From NCBI GenBank assembly GCA_016927655.1, contig JAFGMG010000005.1:75991-139990 (forward strand): 64,000 nt of DNA, given 5' to 3'. Shown here one piece after another: positions 34,811 to 58,450 of this stretch; the first letter of the stretch is position 1, and each line of letters begins with the position of its first letter. A program made the position numbers and the translations under genes. Source of the DNA: Candidatus Dojkabacteria bacterium. Lineage in GTDB: Bacteria > Patescibacteriota > Dojkabacteria > B142 > JAFGMG01. The notes below the pieces were generated by a model. The model saw only the letters and a list, made by a program, of their open reading frames with translations. It was not told where the DNA came from and ran no database searches.

Positions 34811-35509
34811 TTAGTCGGTTGTGTCAACTGGAATTTTTATAGTGAAAATTGTAGGGTTTTTATTTGATGAAAGTTCAAGATTTCCTCTAAATGTTTCCTG
34901 AATGATTTTTCTGGAAACTGAGAGACCCAGTCCTGTGCCGAATTCGAATGGTTTGGTAGTGAAGTAGCTTCTAAAAATTTTCCTTGAATTTTCTTCCGGG
35001 ATGCCGATTCCAAAATCAACGATTTTTAGAATATACATATTCTTGATCATTCTTGAAATAATGTTAATCCGCCTTGTGCCTTTGTCAGTTATGGCGGTTA
35101 TCTCATCGTATGCATCGACTGAATTGCTTATCAGGTTTGCAACTACCTGGTTGAATTCTACCGGGTTGCCATAGATTTCACGCGATCGAAGATCGAAGTG
35201 GACTTTGACTTTGTTCCTGCGGATTTTGAAATTGAGAAGCCTTACGGCTTTGACGATCTCGTCGTTTGGGTTAAAGCGCAAACTGAAACCGTTTTGTTTA
35301 TTCAGCCTCAGATAATTATTAAGGATCAGATCAATCTGCTCGAGGCCGATAAGCGCCCCATCTATAAATTTCTCTGGATCCTGTCTGGTTTTAATAATTT
35401 CGAGATTTGTCTTGACACAGGTAAGCGGTGTTGCGATTTCATGTGAGAGACCTGCTGAAAATTCGGCTTTGTTGGCGAGTTTTTGCAGTTTTATTATTTG
35501 AGCGCTCAT
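34811..35509 (-). CDS. Orphan cytoplasmic histidine kinase core (HisKA plus HATPase_c, no sensor domain)
   Basis: The H-box (GLSHEIATPLT) and G2 box (GTGLGLSVSRKII) are present. At 232 aa it has no TM or sensor region and no adjacent response regulator. Confidence 0.75.
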   Translation of the reverse strand: MSAQIIKLQKLANKAEFSAGLSHEIATPLTCVKTNLEIIKTRQDPEKFIDGALIGLEQIDLILNNYLRLNKQNGFSLRFNPNDEIVKAVRLLNFKIRRNKVKVHFDLRSREIYGNPVEFNQVVANLISNSVDAYDEITAITDKGTRRINIISRMIKNMYILKIVDFGIGIPEENSRKIFRSYFTTKPFEFGTGLGLSVSRKIIQETFRGNLELSSNKNPTIFTIKIPVDTTD

Positions 35510-36623: not shown

Positions 36624-37445
36624 ATGTTTAAATCGGTAACTAAAGGGAGAAAGTTTCTTCTTCTTGGCTTCATTGCTTTGATATTTATTGCAGCTCTAAT
36701 AATCAACATTTTCCTGATACTAAATACACCAAAAGTAGAAAGTCCTAATGATTTTGCTAAAAGTGAGGAAGATGTTAATGATAAGCAAGCGGTCTCTCCG
36801 GATAATTCTAAAGTTCTTGATCTTAAAGCGACAGATAACAATTTTACATTAAGCTTATTGGATTCTAAGGGAGAAATACTCAAAGAGTTCGAATCAGACG
36901 AAATACTTGATGCAGCGTTTGGGATGAATAGTCTGATATATTATCAAAAAGCAGGAGATGATTTTGGGATTTACGCGTACCCTCTGGATTCCGGTACTCC
37001 AGTGAGAATAATAAACTCAATTGATCCGCAGTTTTTTTTAAATATTGCCTTTATTTCGGATGAGAAATATTTCTTTATAGAGCCAAAAACCGGCAAATAC
37101 GGTTTTGGATATGTTTCAGGCGGAGGAAATGAATATCTCGGACAGAAAACTTCAGGTGTAGAAAGCGTGGTTGAAACAAACATTGCCGCATTTTCAAATC
37201 CATTTGTATTGCCGGCTGGGGAAAATATATTTGTAATAACAAGATCCGTTGTCCAGGAGGAGATAAAACTTTTTATTGAGGCGTATCCGATAGATCAAAA
37301 GCCTTTCAGCAATCCGGTTTTTTCCGAAGAACTGGGTTCAGATTTTGGGCAGGAAATAGCAATAGACGTTGAGGGAGACAATCTGAAAATCAGGACATTT
37401 AATTTAGCTGTAAATATGCAAACTTTCGAAATTTCAAAAATATAA
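36624..37445 (+). CDS. Hypothetical membrane-anchored protein (273 aa)
   Basis: N-terminal TM (LLLGFIALIFIAALIINIFLIL). No recognised domain. Sits immediately upstream of the giant Rhs gene. Confidence 0.45.
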   Translation: MFKSVTKGRKFLLLGFIALIFIAALIINIFLILNTPKVESPNDFAKSEEDVNDKQAVSPDNSKVLDLKATDNNFTLSLLDSKGEILKEFESDEILDAAFGMNSLIYYQKAGDDFGIYAYPLDSGTPVRIINSIDPQFFLNIAFISDEKYFFIEPKTGKYGFGYVSGGGNEYLGQKTSGVESVVETNIAAFSNPFVLPAGENIFVITRSVVQEEIKLFIEAYPIDQKPFSNPVFSEELGSDFGQEIAIDVEGDNLKIRTFNLAVNMQTFEISKI

Positions 37446-37466: not shown

Positions 37467-40400
37467 ATGAAAAATCTCTTCCTGAAATTTAGACTCCCCG
37501 GTTTGTGTTTATTAATAGTTTCTGTAATAGCTGGCATAACTGTTTTGAATTATGTATCTTACAAGGATGCAAAGAACAGTGAACCTATTACTCTCCCGCA
37601 GGAGGAATACGTTCCTAATATTCCCAGGGTGGAGCCTATTAAAGTCGAAAATGAAAGAGATTTTGTTGAGAATCAAGTTCTTCTTACGTTTGAAAATGGA
37701 ACAAGTGAAGATGAAATAAATAAATATGTTGAATCTATCGGAGGTAAGGTCGAAGTAAATATAGATAAACTTGATTCTGTTGTTGTAAGCTTTTCAAGTA
37801 CTGTCCCTGATAAATTCCCGGAAAATACAATATTAGCTTCAAGCGAGAAGGACTATCTGGCAGTAGCTTTGGGAGATAAAGATAAGGGAGCCTCTAGTGA
37901 AAGTTATCAGCTATCTCAAAGTGAAATTGAGAATACAAATTATACAGATGAAGTAATAGTCGCTCCCCCACTTGATGTTCCAGAAGATGCATACAAACCT
38001 GTACAGCCGTTTAATGATCCTGAATATATCAATCAATGGGGAATGCAGGTGATGGGAATTGAAGATCTTTTAAGGCAAGATAAAAGTACACAGAAAGAAA
38101 CTATCGTGGCAGTTATTGATAGCGGCATTTGCATAGATCATCCGGATCTTGCCGGAAAGATTGTAAAAGGTTATGACTTTGTGGAAAATGATAATATCCC
38201 TCAAGATGATTTTGACCATGGCTGCGGTGTAGCTGGAATTATTGCAGCTAATATTGATAATGAAAATGCGATAACCGGTGCGGCTCCAAATGCAAAAATC
38301 ATGCCGCTTAAAGTTTTAGATTCTCAAGGAATCGGGCAATATTCTGATATAGCCTCTGCAATTATTTATGCAGTTGATCATAAGGCAAAATATGTAAATA
38401 TAAGCGCTGGTGGCATTCAAGATTCCATCCTTCTTAAAAAAGCAGTGGATTATGCGAAAAAAAATAATGTAGTGATAATTGCTGCTGCTGGTAATACTTA
38501 TTCTGAAGAAGCGCTCTACCCTGCAAGATATGAGAGTGTTATTTCCGTCGGCTCTATAGGGCAGAATTTTTATGTGAGTAATTTTTCAAGCAGAGACAAA
38601 GCTGTTGATTATTGGGCTCCTGGAGAGTCAATCGTTTCTCTAACAGCAGGCAATAGTACTAGCTATTTTTCCGGAACCAGTTTTGCAGCTCCATATATTA
38701 CAAGCTTGTATGTTGATGGAATCTTGAACAGCAAGACAAAATTGCATGGCGGAATGCCAACAGCAGAAGGGAATGTATTGAGTGTGAATTTTGATAGTGT
38801 CGGCACTGAGGTTATAGGCTGGGGAACAACTGAGTTCGATCCCAAAAATACAAAGGACAATCCACAGGAGGAATTCCTGACCGCTCAATCAAGTACAGCC
38901 TGTGTGACTCGTTATGATACTGGATGGTGGGCTGGTGCATATTGTTATATCCAGGGAACACTTCAAACAGGAACAAGCACTCAATACAAAATTGTAACAT
39001 CAGGCAAGACATATAATCTCAACCTCAGTAATGCATCACAATATTTAAATAAGACTGTAAAAGTTGAGGTTAAATACACAAGTCAATGGTCATTTACTGT
39101 ACTCTCAGTAACGTTGATAAATAATGTCCCGATTGGGTATTTTGATAATGTAGATATTTATACTTTAAAAGTAAATGGCTGGGCATTTGATCCTGATACT
39201 CCCTCTCAGTCAATAAATGTCCATGTTTATATCGATGGACCGGCAGGTTCTGGAGCCCCAGGGTATGCTGTTTTAGCTGGAAACTACCGCGGCGATGTAA
39301 ATGCTGTCTATGGAATTACTGGAAATCATGGTTTCTCCTGGCCCCTGCCCTCTCAATTTACTTCGGGAACCCATACTTTTTATGTGTATGCAATAAACAG
39401 CTGGGGTGGAGCAAACCCGCAGATAAGCAGATCCCCGCTTCAGGCGACAATTCCAGTTTTTGACTATGATCCCCCTTCAGATAAAATAACAAGCATTTCT
39501 AATAATACTTCTTTGTATGGGAAACTTGTACCTCAAGGGGAAAATGCAGAGAAATTGAGCGAGGCAAACACTAGCATATCTTATGAGGCTTCTGATCCAG
39601 ATGCTGATCCGGTAAACACAGCAACTGGATTTCTTGATTATTCAGTAAATGATATTGGTTATACAGAGATTAATGGTATCCCGTTTGATTTTATTAGGGC
39701 ATACAATTCTGACAGCAATTATTCAGGAATTTTGGGAACTGGCTGGCAGGCTTCTTTTGATATGAAGCTTATCGCTTCTGTGAAAAATGGTACATACGGA
39801 TGGACAGTGCTATTCCCTGATGGACATGGAGAGACATTTAATGAGCCTGATAATAATTATCGAACTTTTGATTATCAATTTACTAATGCGAATAGTGAAA
39901 ATAAAGGTACACTATTTAGATACGGAGCAACTGGCGGTCCTGCACCATGGGCTGTTATTTACATTGATTCGCAGACTGGAAAACAGTTTTCTTTCCGAGC
40001 AGAACGGGTGGCTGGAAGCATGTTCGGGAAAATGATCCAGATAAAAAACCCTGACGGTTCTGTTGTAGATTATTCTTATGATGCAAACGGAAAACTTTCA
40101 AGTGCGACTGAGCAGACTTTCGGCAGGAAATTTAATTTTTCAATTGATGCTTCGGGGAGGCTTACTACAATTACAGATGTTTTAGGTAGACCTGTTACTT
40201 ATAGTTATGATGCCAATGGTAAGCTGGCACAGGTAGTCAATACTTTAGGTGGTGTTACTAAATACTTCTATAATGCTGAGAATAAAATTCGGCGCATTGA
40301 GGATCCAAATGGGAACACAACTTATGAATTTGTTTATGACGGTTCTGGCAGGGTTAGTGCAAAAACTAATGGAACTGGACAGGTAACAACGTATTCTTAT

Positions 40401-43400
40401 TTGGAGAATGGGGGCCTGAAAATAACTACTATTACTGATCCGAATGGAAATTCAACCATCCACAAGCATAATGATAAAAATTATTTCGTTGAGAAAATCG
40501 CACCAAATGGCGATGTGACTAGTTATACGTATGATGATAAAGGCCAGAGGCTGAGCGAAACTTTCCCAGATGGAAAAATTTATCACTTTGAGTATGATAC
40601 TAAAGGGAACAGAACAAAAACTATCTATCCAAATGGGTACGAAGTAGCAACTGTTTACAATGATTCAGGAAAACCAACTAAGATCACTGAAGGCAATAAT
40701 GACAGAATTACAGAATATGGGTATGACTCAAAATTTAATCTTACCTCCGTTACAGATCCGGAGGGTAATACAGTTACTTACGAATATAACACTAATAACC
40801 AGCTTATAGGAACGATATCTATAGGAGAAAATAAGAGATGGGATAACAATTTCTTCAGCGGGCCAAATTGGGATCCAACAAAAACAGTTGTAACAACGGG
40901 TGATGTAAATGGAGATGGTTTGCAAGACATTGTCGGGTTTGGCATAGATGATATTTATGTCGCTTTGTCAAATGCTGATGGGTTTGATGAACCGCAGATA
41001 TGGCATAGTACAAATTACACTTTAAATGATTGGGGATGGAGTGTATCAATGCACCCAAGAATGCTTGCTGATGTGAATGGAGATGGAAAAGATGATATTG
41101 TCGGGTTTGGTGGTGGTGGGGTTTACGTTTCTTTGTCCGATGGAGCAAGATTCTTGGAAGGAAGTATGTGGTCAGCAAGTTTTGTTTACAATTTGGGCTG
41201 GCGGGTGGAAAAGCATATCAGAGTAATGGGAGACGTAAATGGAGATGGTAAGGATGATATTGTCGGTTTTGGGGATGACGATATTTTTGTTGCATTGTCA
41301 ACTGGCAGTAGTTTTGGTGGATCCCAGATATGGCGAAGTGATGATTTTACATACAATGACTGGGGATGGAGGGTGGAAGCAAATCCAAGAACACTTGGAG
41401 ATATAAATGGGGACGGTAAAGATGATATTGTCGGGTTTGCAGGTTCTGTAGTCGCGGTAGCTATCTCCAATGGGACACAATTCCTGCCGACGTCACTCTG
41501 GACTAGTGAGTTTAGCTACAATCAGGGCTGGAGAGTCGGAGATCATGAGCGTTACGTGAGTGATATTAATGAAGATGGCAAAGCAGATATAGTCGGTTTT
41601 AAAGACGACGCTGTCTATACTGCATTCTCAACAGGGACAAGTTATCAGTCTTCTCAAGTTCTAGATAGGAACTTTAATGTAGGAGATGGCTGGAATTTTT
41701 CGAGCAGAAGATTTGCAGGTGATTTGGATGGGGATGGAAAAACAGATCTTTTCGGTCTAAAAAGTGATGGTATTTACGCTACAACAGGCAGGGGGAAAAT
41801 TACATCATTAAGCTATGACGCGAAGGGCTATCTGGCTGCGCAAAAAAATGATAATGCCAATGCAACAACCAGCTATACAAATAATCTAATTGGATTTGTG
41901 CAAAGCAAAACAGATCCAAATGGCAATACCTCCCAGTACACATATAACTCTATCGGCAATAAAACAAGTGAAACAGATGCAAATGGAAATACTAAAACTC
42001 TTGAATATGATCTGGCTGGGAATTTGACGAAGGAAATTGAAGAAGCTGGGGTTGAGACGGTTTATGTTTATGATGCAAACTATAATGTAGTCTCGAAACA
42101 AGTTGGAGATGCGCAGATTACTAGTTACCAATACGATGCCGGCGGTAGAAAAATCAAAGAAATTGCCCCAGAAGGAAATTATGTTGTCTACTCTTATGAT
42201 GCAAATGGCAGATTGACAAAAACAGAAAATTTTGGTGCAGATGATGTTTCTCTAGGTGCTGTTACGACTACATATAATAGTTCTAACACAAAAGCTTCTG
42301 AAACTGATGCGAATGGGGTTCCCACTACTTATACTTATGACGCCCTCGGCAGGCTTGCCAGCGAGACAAAGGCTGGCAAAACAAAGACTTATACATATGA
42401 TCAGTGGGCAAATCTGACTAGTGAATCTGACTGGGAAGGGAATGTAAGTTTCTTTGCTTATGACAAGAATAATAATAAAGTCCTGGAAAAGAATCCGATA
42501 GAGGTAGATCAGCGAACTCAGGGTAAAATCAGCAAATACGATGCGGCGGGAAATCAAATTGAAATAGTTGATTCAATGGGCGGGGTTACGAAACAATACT
42601 TTGACACGGAAAAGCGACTGATCAAAGTCGTCAATCCAAAAGGACAGATGGCAGACTATACTTATGCCAAAAATGGCAATCTACTCTCTCAGATAAATTT
42701 TGCCGGTGAAATATCGACATTTAACTATGACGGGAATGGAAACCTGACCAGTAAAACTGACAATCTGGGCAATGTGACCGCATTTACTTACAATTCAAGG
42801 AATCAAAATACTTCGATCATTGATGTAAATGGCAATGTCACCTCTATGCAATATGATCAATACGGTAATCTGGTTCAGGTCACTAATGCTGAAGGAGGAT
42901 TGAGGACTTTCAGCTATGACCTGAATGGCAATTTGATTTCAGAAACTGACGAGCTTGGCAACACAAAGACATATGCTTATAACTCTTTGGGCAAAAGAAC
43001 AGCAGAAACAGAGACAAAACAAGTTGCAGGGGAACTTACTGAAGTCACTAGGGCCTTTGAATACGACAGTAAAGGAAACCTGACTGCTGCTGTCAATGAA
43101 AGAGGACATACAATAAACTATTCTTACAACGCATTTGATAAAGTTACAACAGTAGAAAATCCCGATGGCACCTCGAAGGGCTTCAGCTATGACGGAAATG
43201 GCAATGTGCTGACTAGTACTGACGAACTTGGTAATGTGACGAGTTTCACTTATGACAAGATGGGTAGAAAATTGAGTGAGACTGATCCTGCAGATTATAC
43301 ACAAAACTATGCTTATGATCTGCTTGGCAGGCTTGTGAGTGAAAGTGATAAGAAAGCGAATGAGACAAACTATGAATATGATTCTGTCGGGAATGTGACT

Positions 43401-46400
43401 AAAGTGACGGATCGCGGCGGAAATGAAACTACAGTGGCTTATGACGGCGGCAATAGAATATTAACTGTGAATTATCCAAATGGACTTGAATTGACTAATG
43501 CCTATGACGGGCTTGGAAGAAAACTCTCGGAAACTAAATCCGGCGCTAGTCTCCCCTCCTCTGTCGTTGAGCAATACAGTTATGATGATCTTGGTAATTT
43601 AATTTCAAAAACTGATGCAAATGGCAGCGTCACGACTTTTACATACGATGATCTAAACAGGCAATTGGCCGAGAACAAGCCGCTTGGGCTTACAGCCGAG
43701 AAAACCTATGACGCGGCCGGCAATGTGATTTCCCAGACAGATGAAAACGGTAATACTACGACATTTGCTTATGATCCGGCAGGATCAGTTACAAGAAGAA
43801 CTGACGCGCTGGGTGTGAGCACTTCTTACAAGTACGATGCAGCTGGCAATTTGATGCAGGAAATTAACGGGAACAGTGTCCCAACCTACTACAGTTATGA
43901 CAGTAGAAATAGAAAAACAGAGACAAAAGACAGAAATCTGGAAGTGCTTGAGAGCCTTGAATATGATGGAGCTGGTAATGTCACATTAAGGTATGATGCC
44001 AATAGTTATGCAACGGAATTTACATATACTTCAACCGGACTTCTTGCCTCTACAACTGATCCTGCCGGCAATACGATCAGCTACAGTTATGATGAAAACG
44101 GCAATATTCTGACTGAAGCAAATCAGCTTGGGTTTGTTACAAGCTATGCTTACGACTCACTTGACCAGGTAATCCATGAAACCGATCCGCTTGGCAATAT
44201 GTGGGTTTATGAATACGATCAGGCTGGCAATCCTATCACGGGGATAGATCCTTTGAATAGAACTCTTTCAAATCAATACGATGAACTCGGCAGGAAGATC
44301 AAAGTTTCTCAAAACAGCCAGAGTATGGGGGTGGTCGAGACAGACTATGAATATGATAATAACGGAAACCTTGTACAAGCTATCGATCCAATGGGCAATA
44401 TCACAGTAAATGTCTACGATGCTCTAAACCGCAGGCTTAGTACTACAAACGCAGAAAACGAGACAAAATATTTCAGTTATGATGGAGTCGGGAATATTAC
44501 CCAGACAATCGATGCTAATGGTAATTCTGTGGAATATTCTTACGATGATGTTTATAGAAAAATCGCACAAACAGACGAACTTGATTATACAACTGGCTAT
44601 TCTTACGATGATGCCGGGAATTTATTGAGTATCACAAAGCCAAGGGGTAACTTGGAAAGCTATGCTTATGATGATTTCGGCAGGAAGATTAGTTATACAG
44701 ACGGTGAAGGCAATGTAACAGACTACGAATATGACAGGAATGGGAATTTGACTGCAGAGTTGCGGCCAAACGGCACCAGGCATACTTACGGATATGACGC
44801 TCTCAATAGGCCGATTGTTGAATATTCTATTGCTCCGGGCGAAGATCCTGTCGCCAGGTCTAGAACTGACTATGATGCTGCAGGCAGAGTGATCAAAACA
44901 ACCGATGCGCTTGGGAATTTCACAACTTATGAATACGACGGTCTTGATAGATTGACTAAAGTTATTGATCCGCTTCAGCATTCTACTTTCTACTCTTATG
45001 ATGCAGTTGGGAATCTGACTAGAGAAATAAATGCAAACGGTGCTGTTACAAATTATACCTTTGATGAATTTAACAATCTGATCACTGAAACTGACCCTAC
45101 GTCGCACACATGGAGCTATGAGTATGATAAAAACGGGAATATTGCGAAAGAAACTGATGCTAATGGGAATGTAAATACTAGAGAATATGACTTCGCGGGA
45201 AGGATTACTGCAAAAGAGTATCTGGATGGAAACAATAATCCTCAGGCAGAAAGTACGTATTTTGAATATGATAATGCAGGTAATTTGATCAGGGCGTACA
45301 ATCAAGCCCAGGAAAATGTATTTGATTTTGACGAAAGATCAAGTATTACAGGAACGAGTGATTCGAGAAATTACACTCAGAGCTATACTTATGATGCTAA
45401 CAATCTTCTGGAAACTCATACCTTTGCAGACGGGCACGAGCAGGAGCTTACATATAACCAGAATGATCAAGTCTCGCAGATGAAAATGGTCTACAATGGC
45501 GATAGTGTGACAGAGAATGATTCTTACGCTCTCTCTACTCTATTTGAATACGACAGCAATGGTAATCTGAACTATCAGATAAATCCTGATAAAACTGTGA
45601 TTTCCAAGACTTATGATGCTCTTGATCAGGTTGTTGAAGTGAATAATTACATGTCAGCCGATGCTTCAGCTGAGCCTGGAGAGCCTGCGTGGAAAACTCC
45701 TGAATATGTTCTTGCGAAGTACAATTATGAATTGAATGCGAATGGACAGAAATTGAGCACTGACTTTTTCTCAAATTGTGACAAAGACAACGTCTGTTCC
45801 GCTGGGACAAACGTAAGCACGACTGACAATTATGCTTATGACGCTGCGGGAAGACTTGTCCAATCGAGCAGGACAATTGATAATCCTACGCAGACTATTG
45901 AGAAGGTGAGCTACACGGACAATTATACATATGACGCGGTTGGTAATAGAACGGCCTATTCTTCGACTCAGAGCGGATCTCCTGTGACTGTGAATTATGC
46001 TTACAATCTATCAAACCAGCTTACTGGTAGTGATGATGGCTGGAGCTATAGTTATGATGCTGATGGCAACAGGACTGCTAAATCAAATTCGTCTACTGGT
46101 GAGTATGTGAATATGACATACAACAGAGCTGATGAAATGACTGGAGTTGATAGTAGCCTAAAGGATGAAAGTGGTAACCTGGAAACATACAATTTGAGCT
46201 ACACTTATGATGTCCTTGGCAGGAGGATCAAGAAGCAGGTGAATGCAAGTGATGGGAGTGAAACTTATGATGGAATTCTCTTTCAGAACTACCTCTATCA
46301 GACTAATGGCTGGGATATGGTGAGTGAGTACACAGACAGGGAGATTGGCACTGATCTTCATACGAACTATTACATGGCAAAACTTGACTCTTCTCTGCCC

Positions 46401-48236
46401 TCGCAGGTAGCAGCCGAGGATGTTTTGGATAGGACTCCAGAATCTGACTACAATCTCTGGGACAGTGTTGCGGACGAGAGCAGCTCAGAGATTGATCCGG
46501 AACATAACTTTATCCTGACTCCAGATACGGTACAGAGGATAAGCTACTACCAGAGAGATGCGCTTGACAGTATTGTAAGCAGGACAAATCTGGAGGTGAG
46601 GTATAAAGCAAGTGATACAAGTGGGACACTGGTACTTGATCCAACAGTGCAGATAATAGACGGCTACGGTGTGAACTCTCAATCAAGGACTGATGCATAC
46701 GGGAAGAAACTGAACGAGACAGAAACAGCCTCACCATCTCAAGTAGACTACGAACTCTCAGACTGGCAGGATACAAACTGGAGCTCAAGGAGTTACTCAG
46801 GTCAGGTCTACGACAGAGAATCAGGAACATACTACTACGGCAGCAGGAACTACGATCCTACAAGCGGAACCTGGAACAAGCAGGACAGCTATAGAGGCGA
46901 GCCAAAGAGTCCACTCTCAAGAAACAGATACATCTTCGTCGAAGGAGACCCAGTGAATAGTGTGGATGAGTATGGATACAGTATATTCGGTAAAGCCTGG
47001 GACTACGCAAAAAGACAGGTAAATAGAAGTCTAAATAATGTAAAGAAAGTAACTAAAGTAGTCTACAATACATCAAAAAGTATATACAACTGGAGTAAGA
47101 ATCAGGTAGACATTTTTGTAAACAAAGTCAGGGATAACTACAATTGGCTGAAAGACTATCTGAAAAACAGAGGAGGTGCAGTAAGTGAGTGTATAAAGAA
47201 CCCGAAGAAATGCAGCAACGATGCGAGGCAGGAAATAAGTGATGCGTTGGGGAAAGGCACAGAAGCAGTAAACCATATAGTACAGGAGACAAAGAAAGCA
47301 TCACAAAAGGCAGTACAATCAATAGAAAGTCAATTACAGGAACTTCTAAGTGCAAGTGAGATAGAGAGTACGATAAAGGAGAAGATGGCGCAGATCGGAA
47401 TACCAACTTCAGTAATAAATATTGCGCAAGAGTTTGGGAGAGGAGTTGGGAACGGAGCCTGGGAGAATATAAGACATACCATTACAGATTTGAATCCATT
47501 GTATATAGCAGGAAATGAGCTGAAGAACTTCAGACCGGATGTGACAGTCCCGATGTACATAGATTACTTGCAGGGCAATATATCAAAGGAAGAATTTGAT
47601 GAAATATACTCAGAGCATTGTTCGAATAGTAATTTCTGCAGGATAGGAGATTCATTGCTGCGTGGTGATATAGGAGGGGCGATAAGAGAGACAGGGATAA
47701 CAAATATTGGAGGGATTGGGGCGATAAAACAGGCGGCAGGAATGACAGAGATAAATTACACTTACTACATCAAAGGAGACAAAGATAAAGCAATGGAGAA
47801 ATGTGTAGAGGATGGTACATGCAGGACAATACTGGCATTTCAGAATGGAGACAATGAGATAAAAGCAAGGATACTAGGAGAACAATTCGGCTACTATTCC
47901 GCTGAGGCAGTTAAGATGATATTATTGGTAAAGATGGCGGAGGGTGGGGAACGGAGTATCAATAAAGGTAGCGATAGTTCAACAGTAGAATATAAATTAA
48001 ATTCAAATTGGAAAGACTGGGATAAATATATGGCTAAACGTGGTTGGACAGATGTTGATATTGTTAGAACTATTAAGGCAAATGAGTACATAGAGTATAA
48101 TAAAACAAATTATCTAAATCCTGGGAATCCAACTAAATTATTTACCGATCCAAAAACAGGGAAGTCGCTTGTAATTGATGCAGAAACAGGAGAAATCATT
48201 CAATTAGGAGGGGATCCGAAAAGTTTTAAATTTTAA
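37467..48236 (+). CDS. Giant polymorphic toxin (3589 aa) combining an I9-like propeptide, an S8 subtilase domain, FG-GAP repeats, YD/RHS repeats, an Rhs core and a C-terminal toxin domain
   Basis: A signal anchor opens the protein. The subtilase catalytic triad context is D218 (VAVIDSGICIDHPDLAGK), H (DHGCGVAGIIAA) and S405 (GTSFAAPYITS). Seven or more FG-GAP repeats (DVNGDGKDDIVGFG...) span ~40870-41800. Dozens of YD repeats (YxYDxxGNL, e.g. TYTYDALGRL, SYDANGRL) span ~39700-46900. The canonical Rhs core C-terminal motif (YYYGSRNYDPTSGTWNKQDSYRGEP...NRYIFVEGDPVNSVDEYGY) ends at ~46979. A ~418-aa unassigned C-terminal domain follows (46980-48236). Confidence 0.85.
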   Translation: MKNLFLKFRLPGLCLLIVSVIAGITVLNYVSYKDAKNSEPITLPQEEYVPNIPRVEPIKVENERDFVENQVLLTFENGTSEDEINKYVESIGGKVEVNIDKLDSVVVSFSSTVPDKFPENTILASSEKDYLAVALGDKDKGASSESYQLSQSEIENTNYTDEVIVAPPLDVPEDAYKPVQPFNDPEYINQWGMQVMGIEDLLRQDKSTQKETIVAVIDSGICIDHPDLAGKIVKGYDFVENDNIPQDDFDHGCGVAGIIAANIDNENAITGAAPNAKIMPLKVLDSQGIGQYSDIASAIIYAVDHKAKYVNISAGGIQDSILLKKAVDYAKKNNVVIIAAAGNTYSEEALYPARYESVISVGSIGQNFYVSNFSSRDKAVDYWAPGESIVSLTAGNSTSYFSGTSFAAPYITSLYVDGILNSKTKLHGGMPTAEGNVLSVNFDSVGTEVIGWGTTEFDPKNTKDNPQEEFLTAQSSTACVTRYDTGWWAGAYCYIQGTLQTGTSTQYKIVTSGKTYNLNLSNASQYLNKTVKVEVKYTSQWSFTVLSVTLINNVPIGYFDNVDIYTLKVNGWAFDPDTPSQSINVHVYIDGPAGSGAPGYAVLAGNYRGDVNAVYGITGNHGFSWPLPSQFTSGTHTFYVYAINSWGGANPQISRSPLQATIPVFDYDPPSDKITSISNNTSLYGKLVPQGENAEKLSEANTSISYEASDPDADPVNTATGFLDYSVNDIGYTEINGIPFDFIRAYNSDSNYSGILGTGWQASFDMKLIASVKNGTYGWTVLFPDGHGETFNEPDNNYRTFDYQFTNANSENKGTLFRYGATGGPAPWAVIYIDSQTGKQFSFRAERVAGSMFGKMIQIKNPDGSVVDYSYDANGKLSSATEQTFGRKFNFSIDASGRLTTITDVLGRPVTYSYDANGKLAQVVNTLGGVTKYFYNAENKIRRIEDPNGNTTYEFVYDGSGRVSAKTNGTGQVTTYSYLENGGLKITTITDPNGNSTIHKHNDKNYFVEKIAPNGDVTSYTYDDKGQRLSETFPDGKIYHFEYDTKGNRTKTIYPNGYEVATVYNDSGKPTKITEGNNDRITEYGYDSKFNLTSVTDPEGNTVTYEYNTNNQLIGTISIGENKRWDNNFFSGPNWDPTKTVVTTGDVNGDGLQDIVGFGIDDIYVALSNADGFDEPQIWHSTNYTLNDWGWSVSMHPRMLADVNGDGKDDIVGFGGGGVYVSLSDGARFLEGSMWSASFVYNLGWRVEKHIRVMGDVNGDGKDDIVGFGDDDIFVALSTGSSFGGSQIWRSDDFTYNDWGWRVEANPRTLGDINGDGKDDIVGFAGSVVAVAISNGTQFLPTSLWTSEFSYNQGWRVGDHERYVSDINEDGKADIVGFKDDAVYTAFSTGTSYQSSQVLDRNFNVGDGWNFSSRRFAGDLDGDGKTDLFGLKSDGIYATTGRGKITSLSYDAKGYLAAQKNDNANATTSYTNNLIGFVQSKTDPNGNTSQYTYNSIGNKTSETDANGNTKTLEYDLAGNLTKEIEEAGVETVYVYDANYNVVSKQVGDAQITSYQYDAGGRKIKEIAPEGNYVVYSYDANGRLTKTENFGADDVSLGAVTTTYNSSNTKASETDANGVPTTYTYDALGRLASETKAGKTKTYTYDQWANLTSESDWEGNVSFFAYDKNNNKVLEKNPIEVDQRTQGKISKYDAAGNQIEIVDSMGGVTKQYFDTEKRLIKVVNPKGQMADYTYAKNGNLLSQINFAGEISTFNYDGNGNLTSKTDNLGNVTAFTYNSRNQNTSIIDVNGNVTSMQYDQYGNLVQVTNAEGGLRTFSYDLNGNLISETDELGNTKTYAYNSLGKRTAETETKQVAGELTEVTRAFEYDSKGNLTAAVNERGHTINYSYNAFDKVTTVENPDGTSKGFSYDGNGNVLTSTDELGNVTSFTYDKMGRKLSETDPADYTQNYAYDLLGRLVSESDKKANETNYEYDSVGNVTKVTDRGGNETTVAYDGGNRILTVNYPNGLELTNAYDGLGRKLSETKSGASLPSSVVEQYSYDDLGNLISKTDANGSVTTFTYDDLNRQLAENKPLGLTAEKTYDAAGNVISQTDENGNTTTFAYDPAGSVTRRTDALGVSTSYKYDAAGNLMQEINGNSVPTYYSYDSRNRKTETKDRNLEVLESLEYDGAGNVTLRYDANSYATEFTYTSTGLLASTTDPAGNTISYSYDENGNILTEANQLGFVTSYAYDSLDQVIHETDPLGNMWVYEYDQAGNPITGIDPLNRTLSNQYDELGRKIKVSQNSQSMGVVETDYEYDNNGNLVQAIDPMGNITVNVYDALNRRLSTTNAENETKYFSYDGVGNITQTIDANGNSVEYSYDDVYRKIAQTDELDYTTGYSYDDAGNLLSITKPRGNLESYAYDDFGRKISYTDGEGNVTDYEYDRNGNLTAELRPNGTRHTYGYDALNRPIVEYSIAPGEDPVARSRTDYDAAGRVIKTTDALGNFTTYEYDGLDRLTKVIDPLQHSTFYSYDAVGNLTREINANGAVTNYTFDEFNNLITETDPTSHTWSYEYDKNGNIAKETDANGNVNTREYDFAGRITAKEYLDGNNNPQAESTYFEYDNAGNLIRAYNQAQENVFDFDERSSITGTSDSRNYTQSYTYDANNLLETHTFADGHEQELTYNQNDQVSQMKMVYNGDSVTENDSYALSTLFEYDSNGNLNYQINPDKTVISKTYDALDQVVEVNNYMSADASAEPGEPAWKTPEYVLAKYNYELNANGQKLSTDFFSNCDKDNVCSAGTNVSTTDNYAYDAAGRLVQSSRTIDNPTQTIEKVSYTDNYTYDAVGNRTAYSSTQSGSPVTVNYAYNLSNQLTGSDDGWSYSYDADGNRTAKSNSSTGEYVNMTYNRADEMTGVDSSLKDESGNLETYNLSYTYDVLGRRIKKQVNASDGSETYDGILFQNYLYQTNGWDMVSEYTDREIGTDLHTNYYMAKLDSSLPSQVAAEDVLDRTPESDYNLWDSVADESSSEIDPEHNFILTPDTVQRISYYQRDALDSIVSRTNLEVRYKASDTSGTLVLDPTVQIIDGYGVNSQSRTDAYGKKLNETETASPSQVDYELSDWQDTNWSSRSYSGQVYDRESGTYYYGSRNYDPTSGTWNKQDSYRGEPKSPLSRNRYIFVEGDPVNSVDEYGYSIFGKAWDYAKRQVNRSLNNVKKVTKVVYNTSKSIYNWSKNQVDIFVNKVRDNYNWLKDYLKNRGGAVSECIKNPKKCSNDARQEISDALGKGTEAVNHIVQETKKASQKAVQSIESQLQELLSASEIESTIKEKMAQIGIPTSVINIAQEFGRGVGNGAWENIRHTITDLNPLYIAGNELKNFRPDVTVPMYIDYLQGNISKEEFDEIYSEHCSNSNFCRIGDSLLRGDIGGAIRETGITNIGGIGAIKQAAGMTEINYTYYIKGDKDKAMEKCVEDGTCRTILAFQNGDNEIKARILGEQFGYYSAEAVKMILLVKMAEGGERSINKGSDSSTVEYKLNSNWKDWDKYMAKRGWTDVDIVRTIKANEYIEYNKTNYLNPGNPTKLFTDPKTGKSLVIDAETGEIIQLGGDPKSFKF

Positions 48237-48247
48237 TAAATTGAAAT

Positions 48248-48637
48248 ATGAATGTAGAAATTTGGACTAAGTTGATTGATGGTGTTGAAGTATCAGTGAA
48301 AGTAATAGGGAAAAAGATTGGGAAGGATATGTATAAAATTATTAAAAACTCATATCTAGACTTAGATGATTCTACTGCAATTTGGGAATTTTTCCCAGGA
48401 GATGTCGTTGTCTGCAAGAAAAAAGGTGGTGAGTTGTTTGCACAATCGCTTGTAAATTCAATAATTAAAGATAGAGAAGTTTACTCGATGATATTTTTAG
48501 TTGTATCAAAGAATGGCGAGATTAGTGATGATGATATAGAAAAATTCCGACCTGAAATAAAGAAATTAAAGGAAAGTACAGATATTAAACAAAAGCTCCA
48601 TCCTGTGATTAAAACTTGGTTAAAAAAAGTAAAGTAG
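48248..48637 (+). CDS. Putative cognate immunity protein for the Rhs C-terminal toxin (129 aa)
   Basis: A small ORF starting 12 nt after the toxin stop on the same strand, the canonical position of Rhs/CDI immunity genes. No sequence motif supports this; the call is by position only. Confidence 0.4.
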   Translation: MNVEIWTKLIDGVEVSVKVIGKKIGKDMYKIIKNSYLDLDDSTAIWEFFPGDVVVCKKKGGELFAQSLVNSIIKDREVYSMIFLVVSKNGEISDDDIEKFRPEIKKLKESTDIKQKLHPVIKTWLKKVK

Positions 48638-48911
48638 GCTTAGCGATGCTTAAATTATTGAGTAATGGGGAATATAAAGCATTCGAGAATTATATTAATA
48701 ACAGAGATAAAGCTACAGTTTAAGAGATGCATTAATTTAAAAAATAATTTAAGTTTGAATTTAGGAGATCCTGGGGAGATTAGGCATGGCACGAATAAAT
48801 ATATATAATTATACAGAGATCTAGATTAATAGAAACTTAAGCATTTATTAATATTTACTCTACTCTTATTTACCCCTCTTGTGCTACAATTTCTTGAATT
48901 AGTTATTTCTT

Positions 48912-49763
48912 ATGTTGAATGATAGGGAAGTAAAATTGCCCCAGGATTTACCCTCTGGTACGCAGATTAGGTATAAAATTGGTGCAAGTGAAATCTATAT
49001 TGAAACTCACCGTGAAGTATGGACTCCAAGTGAATTTACAATAAATATGTGTAAACTACTTGATAGCGAGAATTTAAAGAATAAAGTAGTAATGGATTTT
49101 GCTTGTGGAAGTGGTATCCTTGGAATACTGGCGGCTAAAAAGGGAGCAAAAAGTGTTATATTTAGTGATATAAATCAGAGGGCACTTGATATGACAAAGA
49201 GAAATTGGAAATTAAATAATTTACCGATGAGGAGAATGAAGACGATTCGATCCGACTGTTATGAATATTTTCATCAAATAGACAGGAGATTGAAAGTTGA
49301 CGTGATAGTTTCAAATCCTCCGACAGCACCGGAAAATTTAACTACTAAACGACAAAAAAAATTAGCAGCTCAATGGAATGAAAATGGAGAAGATGCTAGA
49401 AAAGTCACGGATGCGTTAATAAAAGAAAGTGGGGACTTCTTGAATGAAAACGGAATTCTATTATTCGTGACGACAAATAAACAGGGACCTATTAGAACTT
49501 CCAAACTACTGAATAAACATTTTGGTAAAGGATTGCAAAAAAATAATCAAGTTGATCCTTTGGACTATATGGATACTGATAATGGGAAATATAACTGGAA
49601 AGTTATTAAAAGACTTAGATTGCTTCTTGATGAATGGTATTTTCCTTTTATAGAAAAATATAAAAATATCGCAATACTCAGAAACGAGCCATCTCCAATC
49701 TTAAGGAATGAAGAAGGGGAACTTATACAGCTTTTGTATTTTATAAAAGCGAATAAGTATTAG
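48912..49763 (+). CDS. Class I SAM-dependent methyltransferase of the MTS (small-domain) family, RsmC/RlmG/HemK-like
   Basis: An MTS-type N-terminal segment (REVWTPSEFTINMCKLL) precedes SAM motif I (VMDFACGSGILGILAAKKGAKSVIFSDIN) and motif IV (VDVIVSNPPTAP; an NPPY-like DPPY/NPPF variant). The substrate (rRNA, protein or DNA) cannot be called. Confidence 0.65.
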   Translation: MLNDREVKLPQDLPSGTQIRYKIGASEIYIETHREVWTPSEFTINMCKLLDSENLKNKVVMDFACGSGILGILAAKKGAKSVIFSDINQRALDMTKRNWKLNNLPMRRMKTIRSDCYEYFHQIDRRLKVDVIVSNPPTAPENLTTKRQKKLAAQWNENGEDARKVTDALIKESGDFLNENGILLFVTTNKQGPIRTSKLLNKHFGKGLQKNNQVDPLDYMDTDNGKYNWKVIKRLRLLLDEWYFPFIEKYKNIAILRNEPSPILRNEEGELIQLLYFIKANKY

Positions 49764-50545
49764 CAGGAATTCCAGATGTTTTCGAAAATATTTTTAAAGG
49801 CCTTGTAAATTGATTCATTCCTCATATTTATTGCTATATAGGGCTTAAGAGACACCATTATAGAGACTTCATTTGAATAAATGATAAAAGTAGTCTGGAA
49901 ATCAAATGTGTCGGGAAGATATCTAGTCTCTCTGAGTTTGTTTTTATCAAGATATCTGAGTCTTTCTCCTTGTGTGTTTTTTACAACCAAAGATCGCATT
50001 TTTATCCTTTTTTTTAATCTTTGAGGAATGTAATGTGTCGAATCATAGTCTTCTGTAAATACTTGCCGCCAATATTGATGATTGGATAAAAATAATATTT
50101 CATTATCAGCATAGTCCAGGGATCTGCTACAAACATCCCGAAATCCCGTTATCCCTTCGTAATACCTTAGTAATGGGCTACTCTCCTTTCTCTCAAAAGA
50201 AGTTTCTATTAAAGGCAAGAGGTTATAAAGTTCGTTTTTCTGTTTTTTGACTTCTTCCTGTTGCTCTTCTATATAAATTTCTTTTGTCCTTATTAAGTTC
50301 TCTAATTTTTTGGGGTTTTCTGCTATTAATATTCTTTCCGAATTCTTAAAACCTTGCGATACTAGGCCCTTTGCTATCAATTTTTCTATAGTTCTGGTAA
50401 CAGTTGTTCGAGGAATGCCGCTTTGTTTTGTAATTGAAGCGATATTTCCCGATTTTAAGCTAAGTAACTCTAAATAGATTTTAGTTTCGTTGGGGCTGAA
50501 ACCAAGATCAGTAAAAATATTATCAATTTTCACATTTTCTTTCAT
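49760..50545 (-). CDS. TrmB-family HTH transcriptional regulator
   Basis: The N-terminus (TKIYLELLSLKSGNIASITKQSGIPRTTVTRTIEKLIAKGLV) is a TrmB-type winged HTH. A C-terminal effector-like domain follows. Its 3' end overlaps the methyltransferase stop by 4 nt. Confidence 0.65.
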   Translation of the reverse strand: MKENVKIDNIFTDLGFSPNETKIYLELLSLKSGNIASITKQSGIPRTTVTRTIEKLIAKGLVSQGFKNSERILIAENPKKLENLIRTKEIYIEEQQEEVKKQKNELYNLLPLIETSFERKESSPLLRYYEGITGFRDVCSRSLDYADNEILFLSNHQYWRQVFTEDYDSTHYIPQRLKKRIKMRSLVVKNTQGERLRYLDKNKLRETRYLPDTFDFQTTFIIYSNEVSIMVSLKPYIAINMRNESIYKAFKNIFENIWNSC

Positions 50546-56107: not shown

Positions 56108-58450
56108 ATGGAGTTCGAGATATTCATTTTGTCAGGAATATTGTTACTGAATTTCTTTATATTCTTTTCTATTCTCACCTCTAGGGATAGAAGTAGCAGA
56201 AGTAGGAAGCTTTTGTTTGCTGGGATGATCTTTTGGGTGATTGTATGGGTTATTTCCATTTTGATCACTGATCTGTATTTCAATGACGTTCCTATAAATC
56301 TTTGGGCTTCGAGGATATCATTTTTTTCCTCAGGACTTATAGCAATTTTTTATTTCCTGTTTATAGATTCATATCGAAAGGATAAGAGCTCTTATTATAT
56401 TATTGAGAAATTAATTTGGACCCCATTAGTCCTTTTTATTACTGGCATTAGTTTAACCAATATGGTTCTTGAATCGGTGGAAGTCGTGGATGGCCAGCAT
56501 TTGAAATCTCATTTTGGCAGCCTATATTTGTTATTTACCTTATTTATCTCTGTTAACTTTATTTATTCAGCGATAAAGTTCTATAGGATTTTTCGCCAGG
56601 AAGAAAATCCAACTCTTAGATTTCAGATTCTTTATATTTTATTGGGTACTACTGCTTCCATATTTTTCACACTTACAACGAATCTGTTTATTCCTCTCAT
56701 CACAGAAATAGAAATTAGATCTTTAGGACCATTAGGCTTAATATTCTTTTTGGGGTTGACGTATTATGCAATTTTGAGATATAGATTTTTAAGCTTGAGA
56801 ATATTTGTTGGGAAATTTGTTTACTTCACTTTCGTTTCAGTTGTCCCATATATTGCTTTTTTTGCCATCTATTTATTCCAAACAGAGACTTGGGGAAGTA
56901 TTTGGGATCTAAAGGCAATATTTTCAGGATATTTTATTGCAGCGATTTTCGTTTATTTACTTTTTCTTGCTGACAATAAGGTAAGTCATTTTGTACAAAA
57001 AAATATTGTCTATCATAGTTTTGATCCTGAGAAATTAAACAAGCAATTGATTGATACTGTCAGTAAACAACTAGAGTTGGAAGATGTTTTAAATCAGGTA
57101 TATGAAGTAATTGAGAAAGTTTTTCTGCCAAATAGTCTAGATATTTATGTTTTTGATAATCAAAACAAAGTTTTATCTTATAGAGATGAGCATCTTTATA
57201 TTGAGGAAAAAGTTGAACCGGTTTTTGCTAATATCGTTAAAATTATTGATGATGCGGATGATAACGAAATTCTCATGTACAATGAGCTTCTTCTTCAGTA
57301 CATTGATGAGGGAATTCGGGGGTATAGCAAGGAAGACATAGCCGCTATCGTAAAATTTATGAAAGAAAGGAAGTTTGAAATACTCTTGCCTTATCAACAA
57401 AGTAAAAATCAGTTGAGGGTATTGGTTTTTATTGGCTCAAAACAAACAAATTCTGCATACACGATCGGAGAATTAAGGTTTATTAAGGAAATAATTTCAA
57501 GTTCTAATGTGGCAATTGAGAGAGCACTATATCATCAGCAAGTACAAGATCATGCTGTTAGGTTAAAAAGTGAAATCGACAAAGCAACTCAAGAGCTGCA
57601 GCTCAAAAATCAGCAGCTTGAGGAGACTCTTCGTAAAGAGCGCGACATGATGGATATTCTTGGCCACGAGCTTCGTACACCGCTTACAATCGGCAAAAAT
57701 GCAATGAGATATTTAAAGCAGGATTATGAGAAAGACGGGACTGTCACTCCTGAAGTTATGAAAAAATACCTCGCTATGGCGGATGAAAATCTTACCCGTG
57801 AGGCCAGACTCCTGGAAACTCTTCTCTCCACCACGAAAATTGATAATAAAGCTGTCAATCTTCACATTGAAAAAGCCGATCTGGTCGATGCTGTTAATGA
57901 TTCGCTCGACGCATTGAGATTGAAAGCTGAGGAAAGAGGGCTTCAGGTGATTTATAATCCTCCAGCAGAGTCATTTATTTACGCTGATCGCAATAGAACG
58001 CAGGAAATCGTTGATAATCTGATCGATAATGCAATTAAATATACAAAACAGGGATCAATCACAATCGAAATAATACCTGGAGAAAAAGAAACTGCATTTA
58101 GAGTCACTGATACTGGAGTTGGAATTCCGGAAAAAGATCTTGAGAAACTCGGGCAGAAATTCTACAGAATCAACACGTATCTGGATAGCAGCATAGAAAG
58201 TGACTATAAAGTTGTGAGGCCCGGAGGAACCGGCTTAGGGCTATATGTGACTTTCAGTCTTGTGGAGCTGATGGGCGGGAAAGTTCAGGTTGAAAGCGAA
58301 GTCGGCAAAGGTTCAATCTTCACTGTAACACTGCCAACATATACCGGCCAGGCAGAAAAAGATAACGGATATTCAAATGGCAAAACTGTATTTGAAAGGT
58401 TTGAGGAGATGAAGAAGGCGAAACTGGATTCTTCTGAAAATCTCAATTGA
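56108..58450 (+). CDS. Sensor histidine kinase with an N-terminal multi-pass (7TM-type) membrane sensor
   Basis: Seven or more hydrophobic helices span aa 1-290. A cytoplasmic linker leads to HisKA (ILGHELRTPLTIGKNAMRY) and HATPase_c (GGTGLGLYVTFSLVELMGGKVQVESEVGKGSIFTVTLP). The start overlaps the GT gene end, so it looks like an operon. No adjacent response regulator. Confidence 0.85.
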   Translation: MEFEIFILSGILLLNFFIFFSILTSRDRSSRSRKLLFAGMIFWVIVWVISILITDLYFNDVPINLWASRISFFSSGLIAIFYFLFIDSYRKDKSSYYIIEKLIWTPLVLFITGISLTNMVLESVEVVDGQHLKSHFGSLYLLFTLFISVNFIYSAIKFYRIFRQEENPTLRFQILYILLGTTASIFFTLTTNLFIPLITEIEIRSLGPLGLIFFLGLTYYAILRYRFLSLRIFVGKFVYFTFVSVVPYIAFFAIYLFQTETWGSIWDLKAIFSGYFIAAIFVYLLFLADNKVSHFVQKNIVYHSFDPEKLNKQLIDTVSKQLELEDVLNQVYEVIEKVFLPNSLDIYVFDNQNKVLSYRDEHLYIEEKVEPVFANIVKIIDDADDNEILMYNELLLQYIDEGIRGYSKEDIAAIVKFMKERKFEILLPYQQSKNQLRVLVFIGSKQTNSAYTIGELRFIKEIISSSNVAIERALYHQQVQDHAVRLKSEIDKATQELQLKNQQLEETLRKERDMMDILGHELRTPLTIGKNAMRYLKQDYEKDGTVTPEVMKKYLAMADENLTREARLLETLLSTTKIDNKAVNLHIEKADLVDAVNDSLDALRLKAEERGLQVIYNPPAESFIYADRNRTQEIVDNLIDNAIKYTKQGSITIEIIPGEKETAFRVTDTGVGIPEKDLEKLGQKFYRINTYLDSSIESDYKVVRPGGTGLGLYVTFSLVELMGGKVQVESEVGKGSIFTVTLPTYTGQAEKDNGYSNGKTVFERFEEMKKAKLDSSENLN

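Follow-up and report, generated by a model that had tools for sequence, protein, structure and literature searches.

A putative WapA-like Rhs polymorphic toxin with an N-terminal subtilase and a lectin-type propeller in a Dojkabacteria-like genome

Introduction

Among the closest described systems to the one reported here are the WapA-type Rhs toxins, Sec-dependent proteins of more than 300 kDa that are established in bacteria lacking an outer membrane (PMC12704120). They are laid out as a signal, a wall-binding region, a DUF6531-Rhs1 section, an Rhs2 section and a pre-toxin (PreT) with the C-terminal toxin region (CT), accompanied by cognate upstream genes, and the CTs of Bacillus subtilis WapA have been described as tRNases; how toxins of this type pass through the cell wall is a question that is still open (PMC12704120). 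The combination of a subtilisin of the S8 family with RHS repeats was catalogued in 2012, when Zhang et al. listed Sec-dependent polymorphic toxins having a subtilisin processing protease together with RHS and beta-propeller repeats, with the entry 'Peptidase S8; Repeats: RHS' under Ntox32, and with Tox-ColE5 recorded for RHS toxins (PMC3482391). We have analyzed a stretch of 64,000 nucleotides from a Candidatus Dojkabacteria bacterium (contig JAFGMG010000005.1, positions 75,991 to 139,990; hereafter the window), in which one gene encodes a protein of 3589 amino acids and is closely followed by an open reading frame (ORF) of 129 amino acids. Our reading, to which we assign a probability of about three in four, is that these genes belong to a three-gene, Sec-dependent, WapA-like Rhs system made up of a 397-kDa toxin together with a membrane-anchored accessory protein and an immunity protein of the cytoplasm, in a genome of the candidate phyla radiation (CPR).

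Results

Architecture of the locus

The window protein and the WapA proteins of Gram-positive bacteria (WapA of B. subtilis and WapA-CT of S. suis) have in common a putative Sec-type signal, an N-terminal region of presumed surface binding, DUF6531, two YD blocks and an Rhs core, followed by a pre-toxin with a variable CT and a directly downstream immunity gene. Both exceed 300 kDa, both are independent of a type VI secretion system (T6SS), and both have a cognate upstream gene. Of the features that mark the WapA type, the signal, DUF6531-Rhs section, CT and immunity gene are present, and the wall-binding position is taken by an immunoglobulin (Ig)-like domain of a kind also found in peptidoglycan hydrolases. 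The differences are that LysM, DNRLRE or wall-binding repeats are absent, with a pro-S8 protease and the Ig-like domain in their place, that a lectin propeller lies between the YD blocks, that the host is CPR-like, and that the upstream partner is a transmembrane protein without a known family instead of SecF-like or SrtB. The S8/RHS toxins of the 2012 catalogue (PMC3482391) likewise combine a signal peptide and S8 with RHS (and beta-propeller) repeats, and end in a toxin domain that varies. There, however, S8 accompanies Ntox32 and Tox-ColE5 is paired with ImmE5, whereas here a divergent ColE5-like domain is paired with an unrelated immunity family, and CPR hosts are not covered in the catalogue.

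The features of the locus are as follows, with residues of the toxin protein in brackets.

36624..37445, forward strand: probable accessory gene upstream of the toxin, 273 amino acids including a transmembrane anchor at the N-terminus; separated from the toxin start by 21 nt
37467..48236, forward strand: whole toxin gene, ATG start, 3589 amino acids, 396.6-kDa precursor, frame open throughout
37467..37565, forward strand: putative signal peptide or signal-anchor (1-33); Kyte-Doolittle scan, hydrophobic over residues ~3-33
37635..37805, forward strand: subtilase prodomain, I9/Fervidolysin N-pro-like (57-113); Pfam PF22148 (Fervidolysin_NPro)
38094..38786, forward strand: S8 subtilase catalytic domain (~210-440); Pfam Peptidase_S8 at 210-413, E = 2e-40
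39117..39476, forward strand: Ig/fibronectin type III (FN3)-like beta-sandwich (~551-670); predicted local distance difference test (pLDDT) above 90 in the AlphaFold2 (AF2) model
39606..39839, forward strand: DUF6531 (714-791); Pfam PF20148, E = 5e-11
39840..40841, forward strand: YD/RHS repeat block 1 (792-1125); Pfam, NCBIfam and motif scan
40842..41861, forward strand: six-bladed PVL/AAL2-type lectin-like beta-propeller (~1126-1465), between YD blocks 1 and 2
41862..46775, forward strand: YD/RHS repeat block 2 (1466-3103), ~1640 residues; Pfam, NCBIfam and motif scan
46776..46979, forward strand: Rhs-associated core (3104-3171); NCBIfam Rhs_assc_core TIGR03696 at 3104-3170, 46.5 bits against a cutoff of 32.5
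46980..47981, forward strand: pre-toxin region of the CT (3172-3505), ~335 residues, GC 39.9%, without a significant family
47982..48236, forward strand: putative colicin-E5-like RNase domain (3506-3589 plus the stop codon), ~85 residues, GC 31.0%
48248..48637, forward strand: putative cognate immunity gene, 129 amino acids, no transmembrane segment, isoelectric point (pI) 9.0, GC 30.8%

An exact copy of the 129-residue ORF lies on an independent Logan assembly contig (SRR13394437), where the gene upstream is also called at 3589 residues with S8, DUF6531 and RHS. A metagenome of the JGI contains a homologue of 3509 amino acids (P0201) that is collinear with the window protein from residue 17 to the Rhs core. 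Together with the open frame, these make it very unlikely that a frameshift near 38.9 kb was missed or that the assembly is chimeric. The single uninterrupted ORF of 3589 codons without an internal stop is thus borne out, and the idea that the N-terminus might be a separate gene can be set aside. Between the toxin ORF and the downstream ORF there is a spacer of 11 nt, so that the downstream ORF starts 12 nt after the final base of the toxin stop codon.

The original prediction read this locus as an Rhs polymorphic toxin with an N-terminal subtilase, propeller, core and immunity gene, and that overall reading is supported by Pfam, NCBIfam and our alignments. It had also remarked that no T6SS was visible. 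This agrees with our scan of the window protein and window ORFs, in which we find no T6SS gene and neither the PAAR or VgrG-interacting N-terminus nor the adjacent T6SS genes by which T6SS Rhs effectors are recognized. Genes of a type VII secretion system (T7SS) were not seen among the ORFs scanned either.

The C-terminal domain resembles colicin E5

The tail of the protein, for which the original prediction had named no toxin domain, most resembles colicin E5. Colicin_E5 (PF12106) is the best Pfam family both for this tail (E = 8e-4) and for that of P0200 (E = 3e-4), a 544-residue Rhs fragment that provides the sole match to the CT among 5.8 billion proteins, its last 77 residues being 48% identical to the window tail. 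A two-tail profile searched against the PDB returned colicin E5 structures only (E = 5e-5), and a four-member profile again only colicin E5 (E = 1e-3). The match to colicin E5 (2dfx, 2a8k; PMC1669751) is collinear over ~65 residues, with conservation of the RGWT motif and of a Q in the C-terminal strand. The RGWT motif places R3525 on Arg33 of colicin E5, and the equivalent of R3525 is invariant in three full-length family members. Arg33 is essential in colicin E5, the R33Q mutant being inactive (PMC1669751). A conserved lysine, K3516, lies near the position of colicin E5 Lys25. We therefore regard the tail as a probable, distant colicin-E5-like (BECR-type) RNase, the exact substrate of which may differ from that of colicin E5. 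The delivery also differs, by an Rhs shell here instead of a colicin.

Homologous ColE5-like tails were found on other Rhs proteins, while tblastn of the toxin domain against plasmids gave a chance match only. The pre-toxin region that precedes the domain has no homologue among the same 5.8 billion proteins, and in its N-terminal part the family matches are weak and of helical type. We set aside, as noise from helical sequence of low complexity, the matches of the CT to the Pfam families ApoLp-III, Phasin and YtxH and to PHROG tape-measure proteins (E = 3e-4 to 5e-3).

A family of probable immunity genes accompanies the toxin domain

We compared four loci for the co-occurrence of toxin domain and immunity gene, namely the window, L002, L083 and L084, the last two having come from scanning metagenome contigs with the toxin-domain profile. 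Homologues of the 129-residue ORF lie directly downstream of the ColE5-like domain in all four, with 39-43% identity in L002, L083 and L084. Immediately behind P0200 lies an ORF with 38% identity to that of the window over 128 residues (E = 7e-28). In L083 an Rhs core is followed by a CT whose tail is 56% identical, and the CT in turn by a homologous ORF of 133 residues. L084 (a TARA scaffold, 20..6547) encodes a full-length Rhs protein of 1761 residues with an unrelated CT and its own downstream ORF of 129 residues, and behind this pair the ColE5-like domain recurs as a truncated fragment, together with a homologous ORF of 135 residues that is intact. This tail end is a classic orphan cassette. 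L084 belongs to a marine genome unrelated to the window.

The co-occurrence in four of four loci, one of them an orphan cassette, indicates that the 129-residue ORF belongs to a cognate immunity family. It had been called from its position alone, and now has the association with the toxin domain behind it. The proposed search for orphan cassettes had a divided outcome, yielding the one in L084 and none in the window, where the CT, the immunity gene and RHS are each without a further copy or orphan cassette. The immunity protein has no relative in Pfam, NCBIfam, PHROG or the PDB (best E = 0.19 for the immunity profile against the PDB), and none was found in viral contigs scanned with the same profile.

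Base composition sets the pair apart. The toxin domain and immunity gene have a GC content of ~31%, compared with 40.7% for the gene body, and this fits their acquisition as a cassette. Low values (27-31%) persist through 47982..48911, a stretch that takes in the downstream spacer as well as the toxin domain and immunity gene, while the toxin body stands at ~40%. This sharp drop coincides with the beginning of the ColE5-like domain instead of with the Rhs core, though P0201 already diverges right after the core.

The Rhs shell and its autoprotease core

DUF6531 conventionally precedes RHS repeats, and it does so here. In the blocks that follow, Pfam RHS_repeat is matched in 34 stretches (E = 2e-221) and NCBIfam YD_repeat_2x in 22, and there are 46 strict YD motifs between residues 869 and 2912. 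With a spacing of ~21 residues over ~1,800 residues, the earlier figure of roughly 80 YD repeats is a fair estimate. An AF2 model of YD block 1 has a pLDDT of 85-95 and matches the shells of T6SS Rhs proteins such as 7q97 (E = 6e-27).

Within the core, D3140 (KQDSYRG) and D3167 (SVDEYGY) align with D651 and D674 of TccC3 in the TcdB2-TccC3 fusion (6sup), and a spacing of 23 residues along the chain confirms the numbering. The titles of PDB entries give D651A, and the pair D1369N/D1391N of Tse15, as cleavage mutants. Both catalytic Asp positions of the aspartyl-protease motif are therefore kept, answering the question that had been raised about whether the motif was intact. Cleavage is predicted after Y3171, which would free a CT of 418 residues.

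A comparable design, in which an encapsulated CT is set free by the aspartyl autoprotease of a YD shell, is known from the TcB-TcC cocoon (4o9x/6h6g/6sup) and from T6SS Rhs effectors (7q97, 8h8b), and in TcB a propeller is likewise part of the shell. The window protein differs from these in having no SpvB, TcA, PAAR or VgrG context, in the lectin-like character of its propeller, and in its predicted export by a signal peptide.

A six-bladed lectin-type propeller interrupts the shell

The block between the two YD sections is labeled FG-GAP_3/FG-GAP by Pfam, and had been described as about seven FG-GAP repeats. The propeller block stands, while both the count and the type require revision. We find six DxNGDGxxDIVG motifs in a motif scan, and the AF2 model of residues 701-1500 (mean pLDDT 76) has six four-stranded blades. 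In a phmmer search against the PDB the best relatives are fungal lectins, with E = 2e-77 for Psathyrella velutina lectin (PVL) and E = 8e-68 for AAL2 of Agrocybe aegerita. Comparison with PVL (2bwr) by Foldseek gives a TM-score of 0.60 and a root-mean-square deviation of 4.7 Å at 35% identity (E = 1e-19). TcB propellers match far more weakly in Foldseek and are absent from the PDB sequence-search results.

The likeness to PVL and AAL2 (2bwr, 4tqj; PMC4483166) thus extends to ~35% identity, a common repeat signature GWRVEKH...DVNGDGxxDIVGFG and superposition of the model. The fungal proteins are free lectins with seven blades, whereas the bacterial propeller has six, in its repeats as in its modeled blades, and is embedded in an Rhs shell. 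Reading the sequence of P0201 reveals six calcium-loop-type repeats there too. In AAL2, N-acetylglucosamine (GlcNAc) is held by Asn/Asp, Trp and His in each blade connector (PMC4483166). The Trp is present in all six connectors of the window propeller, and glycan binding is plausible from its sequence.

An N-terminal head with a subtilase

The N-terminus is the sole strongly hydrophobic segment of the toxin protein in the Kyte-Doolittle scan, and an equivalent segment is found in all the S8-subfamily relatives aligned. From this we infer Sec-dependent export. The prodomain scores 22 bits for PF22148 against a cutoff of 21 (E = 2e-4) and aligns with the prodomains of the relatives. In the catalytic domain D218 (AVIDSG), H251 (HGCGVAG), the oxyanion N343 (AAAGN) and S405 (GTSFAAP) are all present; they align with AK.1 protease and thermitase and are invariant in the alignment of the S8 subfamily. 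The description of an intact-looking subtilisin therefore holds for all four residues. Matches to the PDB and Pfam end ~40 residues short of the end of a classical subtilisin. Stand-alone S8 relatives of 445-467 amino acids terminate at the equivalent position, so that the domain is complete for its subfamily and not truncated.

The nearest S8 relatives are 41-43% identical, come mostly from metagenome-assembled genomes (MAGs) of Chloroflexota/Anaerolineae, and have in common with the window protein the unusual HGCGVAG motif. In many of them (P0001-P0060) a second hydrolase follows the S8 domain, which may be M23, CHAP, papain-like, trypsin, reprolysin/M6/astacin or a second S8. The HGCGVAG subfamily thus appears to be a recurrent N-terminal module of combinatorial secreted multi-domain hydrolases. 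An identity as the T7SS mycosin (TIGR03921) was rejected at 168 bits against an equivalog cutoff of 279, and the NCBIfam matches to mycosin, PatA and IteS, all far under their cutoffs, represent generic S8 similarity.

For the Ig-like linker, structural comparison with the PDB returned no more than generic Ig/FN3 matches. In sequence it is related to repeats of secreted peptidoglycan hydrolases of the M23 and CHAP types, and this relationship suggests a role at the wall or surface.

Both ends of the chassis are exchangeable

Relatives of residues 1-1000 were sought among 1.84 billion cluster representatives. P0201 (1179 bits) is 50-65% identical to the window protein in each 100-residue segment from residue 200 to ~3170, and after the Rhs core the identity of the CT drops to noise, with a downstream ORF that is also unrelated. 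A sibling toxin of 3414 amino acids, P0223, has the chassis in common, comprising DUF6531, both YD blocks with the propeller between them (43% identity for the propeller) and the core (61%). Its N-terminus consists of a signal peptide and Peptidase_M23 (E = 3e-8, above cutoff) in place of S8, and its CT and downstream ORFs are different. The exchanged CT of P0201 and the M23 head of P0223 indicate that both ends of the chassis can be replaced. With the scaffold kept while CT and downstream ORF are swapped, the alignments show the logic of a polymorphic toxin.

Immediately upstream of P0223 (in L086) there is a homologue (E = 4e-28) of the window gene 36624..37445. This gene, which lies outside the coordinates of the original prediction and was not named in it, is probably a conserved accessory gene of the toxin system. 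Its product has no match in Pfam, NCBIfam or PHROG, and the two-sequence profile has no relative in the PDB.

Among the best 150 representatives, S8 with downstream RHS repeats occurs also in P0228, P0244, P0261, P0297 and P0298, and in P0323 the pro-S8 unit is C-terminal to the YD repeats. Pfam confirms S8 plus RHS in four of these proteins, one example being NPro+S8+CARDB+DUF6531+RHS. The subtilase of P0323 may be encapsulated cargo instead of a head. There are at least six other clusters at 50% identity with S8 and RHS. A scan of GTDB species genomes found no close relatives of residues 1-800, and no paper on S8-Rhs toxins in CPR came up in a literature search. Given the WapA-type Sec-dependent Rhs toxins (PMC12704120), the S8+RHS catalogue (PMC3482391) and these other clusters, the novelty that the original prediction had attached to the N-terminus was overstated. 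What is new is the combination of domains, and the kind of weapon, a Sec-dependent Rhs polymorphic toxin, is already well known. The distinguishing set is the six-bladed lectin-type propeller in the shell, the interchangeable S8/M23 heads, the membrane-anchored partner gene, the divergent ColE5-like toxin with its unclassified immunity family, and the CPR host.

Host genome and neighboring genes

The CTP synthase encoded in the window is 67-70% identical to those of Dojkabacteria/Patescibacteria MAGs, by which marker the host genome appears to be CPR/Patescibacteria (Dojkabacteria)-like. The earlier guess of an episymbiont is consistent with this.

Directly 3' of the immunity gene are a small-domain methyltransferase (MTS/PrmA/N6_Mtase-like) at 48912..49763, forward strand, and a TrmB-family regulator at 49760..50545, reverse strand. 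Both neighbors are also found on the Logan contig (L001), and they have no evident link to the toxin system. Four large ORFs lack a Pfam family at E<=1e-5; these lie at 24233..29587 (reverse, 1784 amino acids), 12619..16068 (reverse, 1149), 20726..23014 (forward, 762) and 17303..19108 (reverse, 601), and may be giant surface proteins typical of CPR. A homologue of the RuBisCO large subunit at 58995..60410 (forward strand, TTG start) has the Pfam RuBisCO_large and N domains and is presumably form II/III or III-like, of the nucleoside-salvage type. The window also encodes a PFOR-type oxidoreductase and two histidine kinases, at 34811..35509 (reverse) and 56108..58450 (forward), the first of which has only 232 amino acids, with HisKA and HATPase and without a sensor region; among the ORFs scanned we noted no response regulator. 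There are no tRNA or Rfam features in the window, and a scan for promoters and terminators gave no signal above shuffled expectation.

Discussion

A proposed mechanism

The domains can be arranged in a plausible order of events. The precursor would be exported by way of its single N-terminal hydrophobic signal or anchor, presumably through the Sec route. In subtilisins generally, the prodomain aids folding and is then removed autocatalytically. By analogy, once outside the cell the I9-like prodomain would fold the S8 domain and be cut off by it, and this cut would also sever the toxin from its N-terminal membrane anchor. DUF6531 and the ~85 YD repeats would form a closed shell around the C-terminal region, inside which the autoprotease, with its conserved D3140 and D3167, would cut after Y3171 to free the CT. 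The propeller and Ig-like domain, judging from their homologues, may bind glycans on the surface of a target cell or wall material, and the mature S8 domain (M23 in the sibling) may digest the envelope locally, letting the cocoon reach the membrane. The released CT would then enter the target, perhaps by way of the pre-toxin region of ~335 residues, a step that is speculative. Given its distant homology, the ColE5-like domain would cleave RNA, most likely the anticodon loops of tRNA, and so halt translation. The 129-residue protein would neutralize the toxin in the producer and its kin, as its strict co-occurrence with the toxin domain suggests.

Some of the observations weigh against this scheme. 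The Rhs core had been called canonical, and while its score is above the cutoff, its motif is DEYGY and not the canonical DPxGL. The Colicin_E5 matches miss the Pfam gathering cutoff of 25 bits, scoring 17.9-20.1 for the window protein and 21.4 for P0200. The loop that bears the uridine-binding Asp54/Arg56/Ser57 of colicin E5 is shortened in this domain, and Lys60 is aligned to a lysine only in the window protein and is thus not family-wide. Nor is the immunity protein ImmE5; it is basic (pI 9.0) and unrelated to ImmE5, which is acidic and mimics RNA, and a different mode of inhibition is therefore likely. In contrast to PVL/AAL2, the full Asn/Asp-Trp-His triad is found in one of the six propeller connectors, NYTLNDWGWSVSMH, the remaining five having S-W-H, D-W-N, E-W-H, N-W-R and N-W-T/K. 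Finally, there is no LysM-type or known wall-binding repeat in the toxin protein.

If the reading as a WapA-like toxin is extended to its full reach, the chassis of signal, interchangeable envelope hydrolase, shell-embedded propeller and membrane-anchored partner would become a self-contained device, independent of any secretion system, with which ultra-small CPR epibionts dock on the glycans of a host or rival, cut its envelope and inject an RNase. We hold this complete picture only tentatively, and consider it unlikely.

Alternative explanations

The subtilase may serve to release the protein from its anchor, to breach the envelope, or to do both. It could also be only a releasing or maturation peptidase that frees the toxin or the cocoon from its producer without acting on the target, or an unrelated nutritional exoprotease fused by chance. 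Subtilisin is among the processing proteases of Sec-dependent polymorphic toxins (Zhang et al. 2012, PMC3482391). Here the prodomain sits between membrane anchor and catalytic domain, so that autoprocessing must detach the protein, and the closest S8 relatives form the N-terminal part of a wide variety of secreted hydrolases. Against this, release of the CT is already supplied by the Rhs core, and the mature protease remains on the cocoon after removal of the prodomain. Moreover, an M23 peptidoglycan peptidase holds the same position in P0223, and the adjacent Ig-like domain is common to M23 and CHAP wall hydrolases; these last two points favor an envelope-directed role for S8. We think a role confined to release or nutrition somewhat unlikely.

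The protein could alternatively be a teneurin-like adhesin or attachment organelle, in which the propeller, Ig-like domain and shell hold the epibiont in place and S8 trims host proteins, the CT being minor, regulatory or host-manipulating. The CPR-like host would suit such a role, as would the PVL-type propeller and the Ig-like domain in their capacity as binding modules, the other giant family-less ORFs in the window, which are usual for CPR surface proteins, and a YD shell of the kind common to teneurins and teneurin-like proteins. But the CT and downstream ORF behave as a mobile cassette, being found together at four of four loci (once as an orphan), marked by a GC shift and swapped between homologues, and the residues of the Rhs autoprotease are kept. 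Toxin delivery and adhesion are in any case compatible with each other. As a replacement for the toxin reading we judge the adhesin to be improbable.

A third proposal would make the protein a fusion of the TcB-TcC type, directed against eukaryotic cells, with the propeller as a gate that docks on a TcA-like translocator. The propeller is indeed inserted in a YD shell of ~2,450 residues, the size of a TcB+TcC fusion, Foldseek matches TcB-TcC structures (E = 1e-12 to 1e-16), and the core aligns with TccC3. Pfam and NCBIfam nevertheless detect no SpvB or TcdB mid domain, and no TcA-like gene is present among the window ORFs scanned. The propeller is far closer to fungal GlcNAc lectins than to TcB, of which the sequence search returned none, the best structural matches are T6SS Rhs shells, and the cognate immunity gene and colicin-type RNase point to bacterial targets. 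A Tc-like role is thus highly improbable, and we rejected it. Lastly, a misassembly or missed frameshift fusing a subtilase gene to an Rhs gene has nothing but the unusual gene length to recommend it and can be rejected, given the open frame, the 3589-residue gene on the Logan contig, the collinear P0201 and the existence of other S8-DUF6531-RHS proteins.

Implications

The preferred reading remains a WapA-like Rhs toxin with its accessory and immunity genes. CPR/Patescibacteria have genomes of roughly 1 Mb and depend on other cells, and to our knowledge little is known of how they fight or manipulate their neighbors. On this reading a single gene of 10.8 kb would be devoted to an entire device for delivering a toxin, and its immunity gene would stand beside it. 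The ligand of the propeller may name the target cell. The 'head', a protease or a peptidoglycan peptidase, may explain how an Rhs cocoon of 400 kDa passes the wall without a T6SS or T7SS. The ColE5-like RNase comes with a previously unclassified immunity family. The parts and their general logic are already known, and the system therefore extends the picture of polymorphic toxins without changing it. Should the reading as a self-contained device be true, it would represent a distinct mode of delivery for Rhs cocoons, and would provide a direct molecular handle on the ways in which other cells are attacked or controlled by CPR bacteria.

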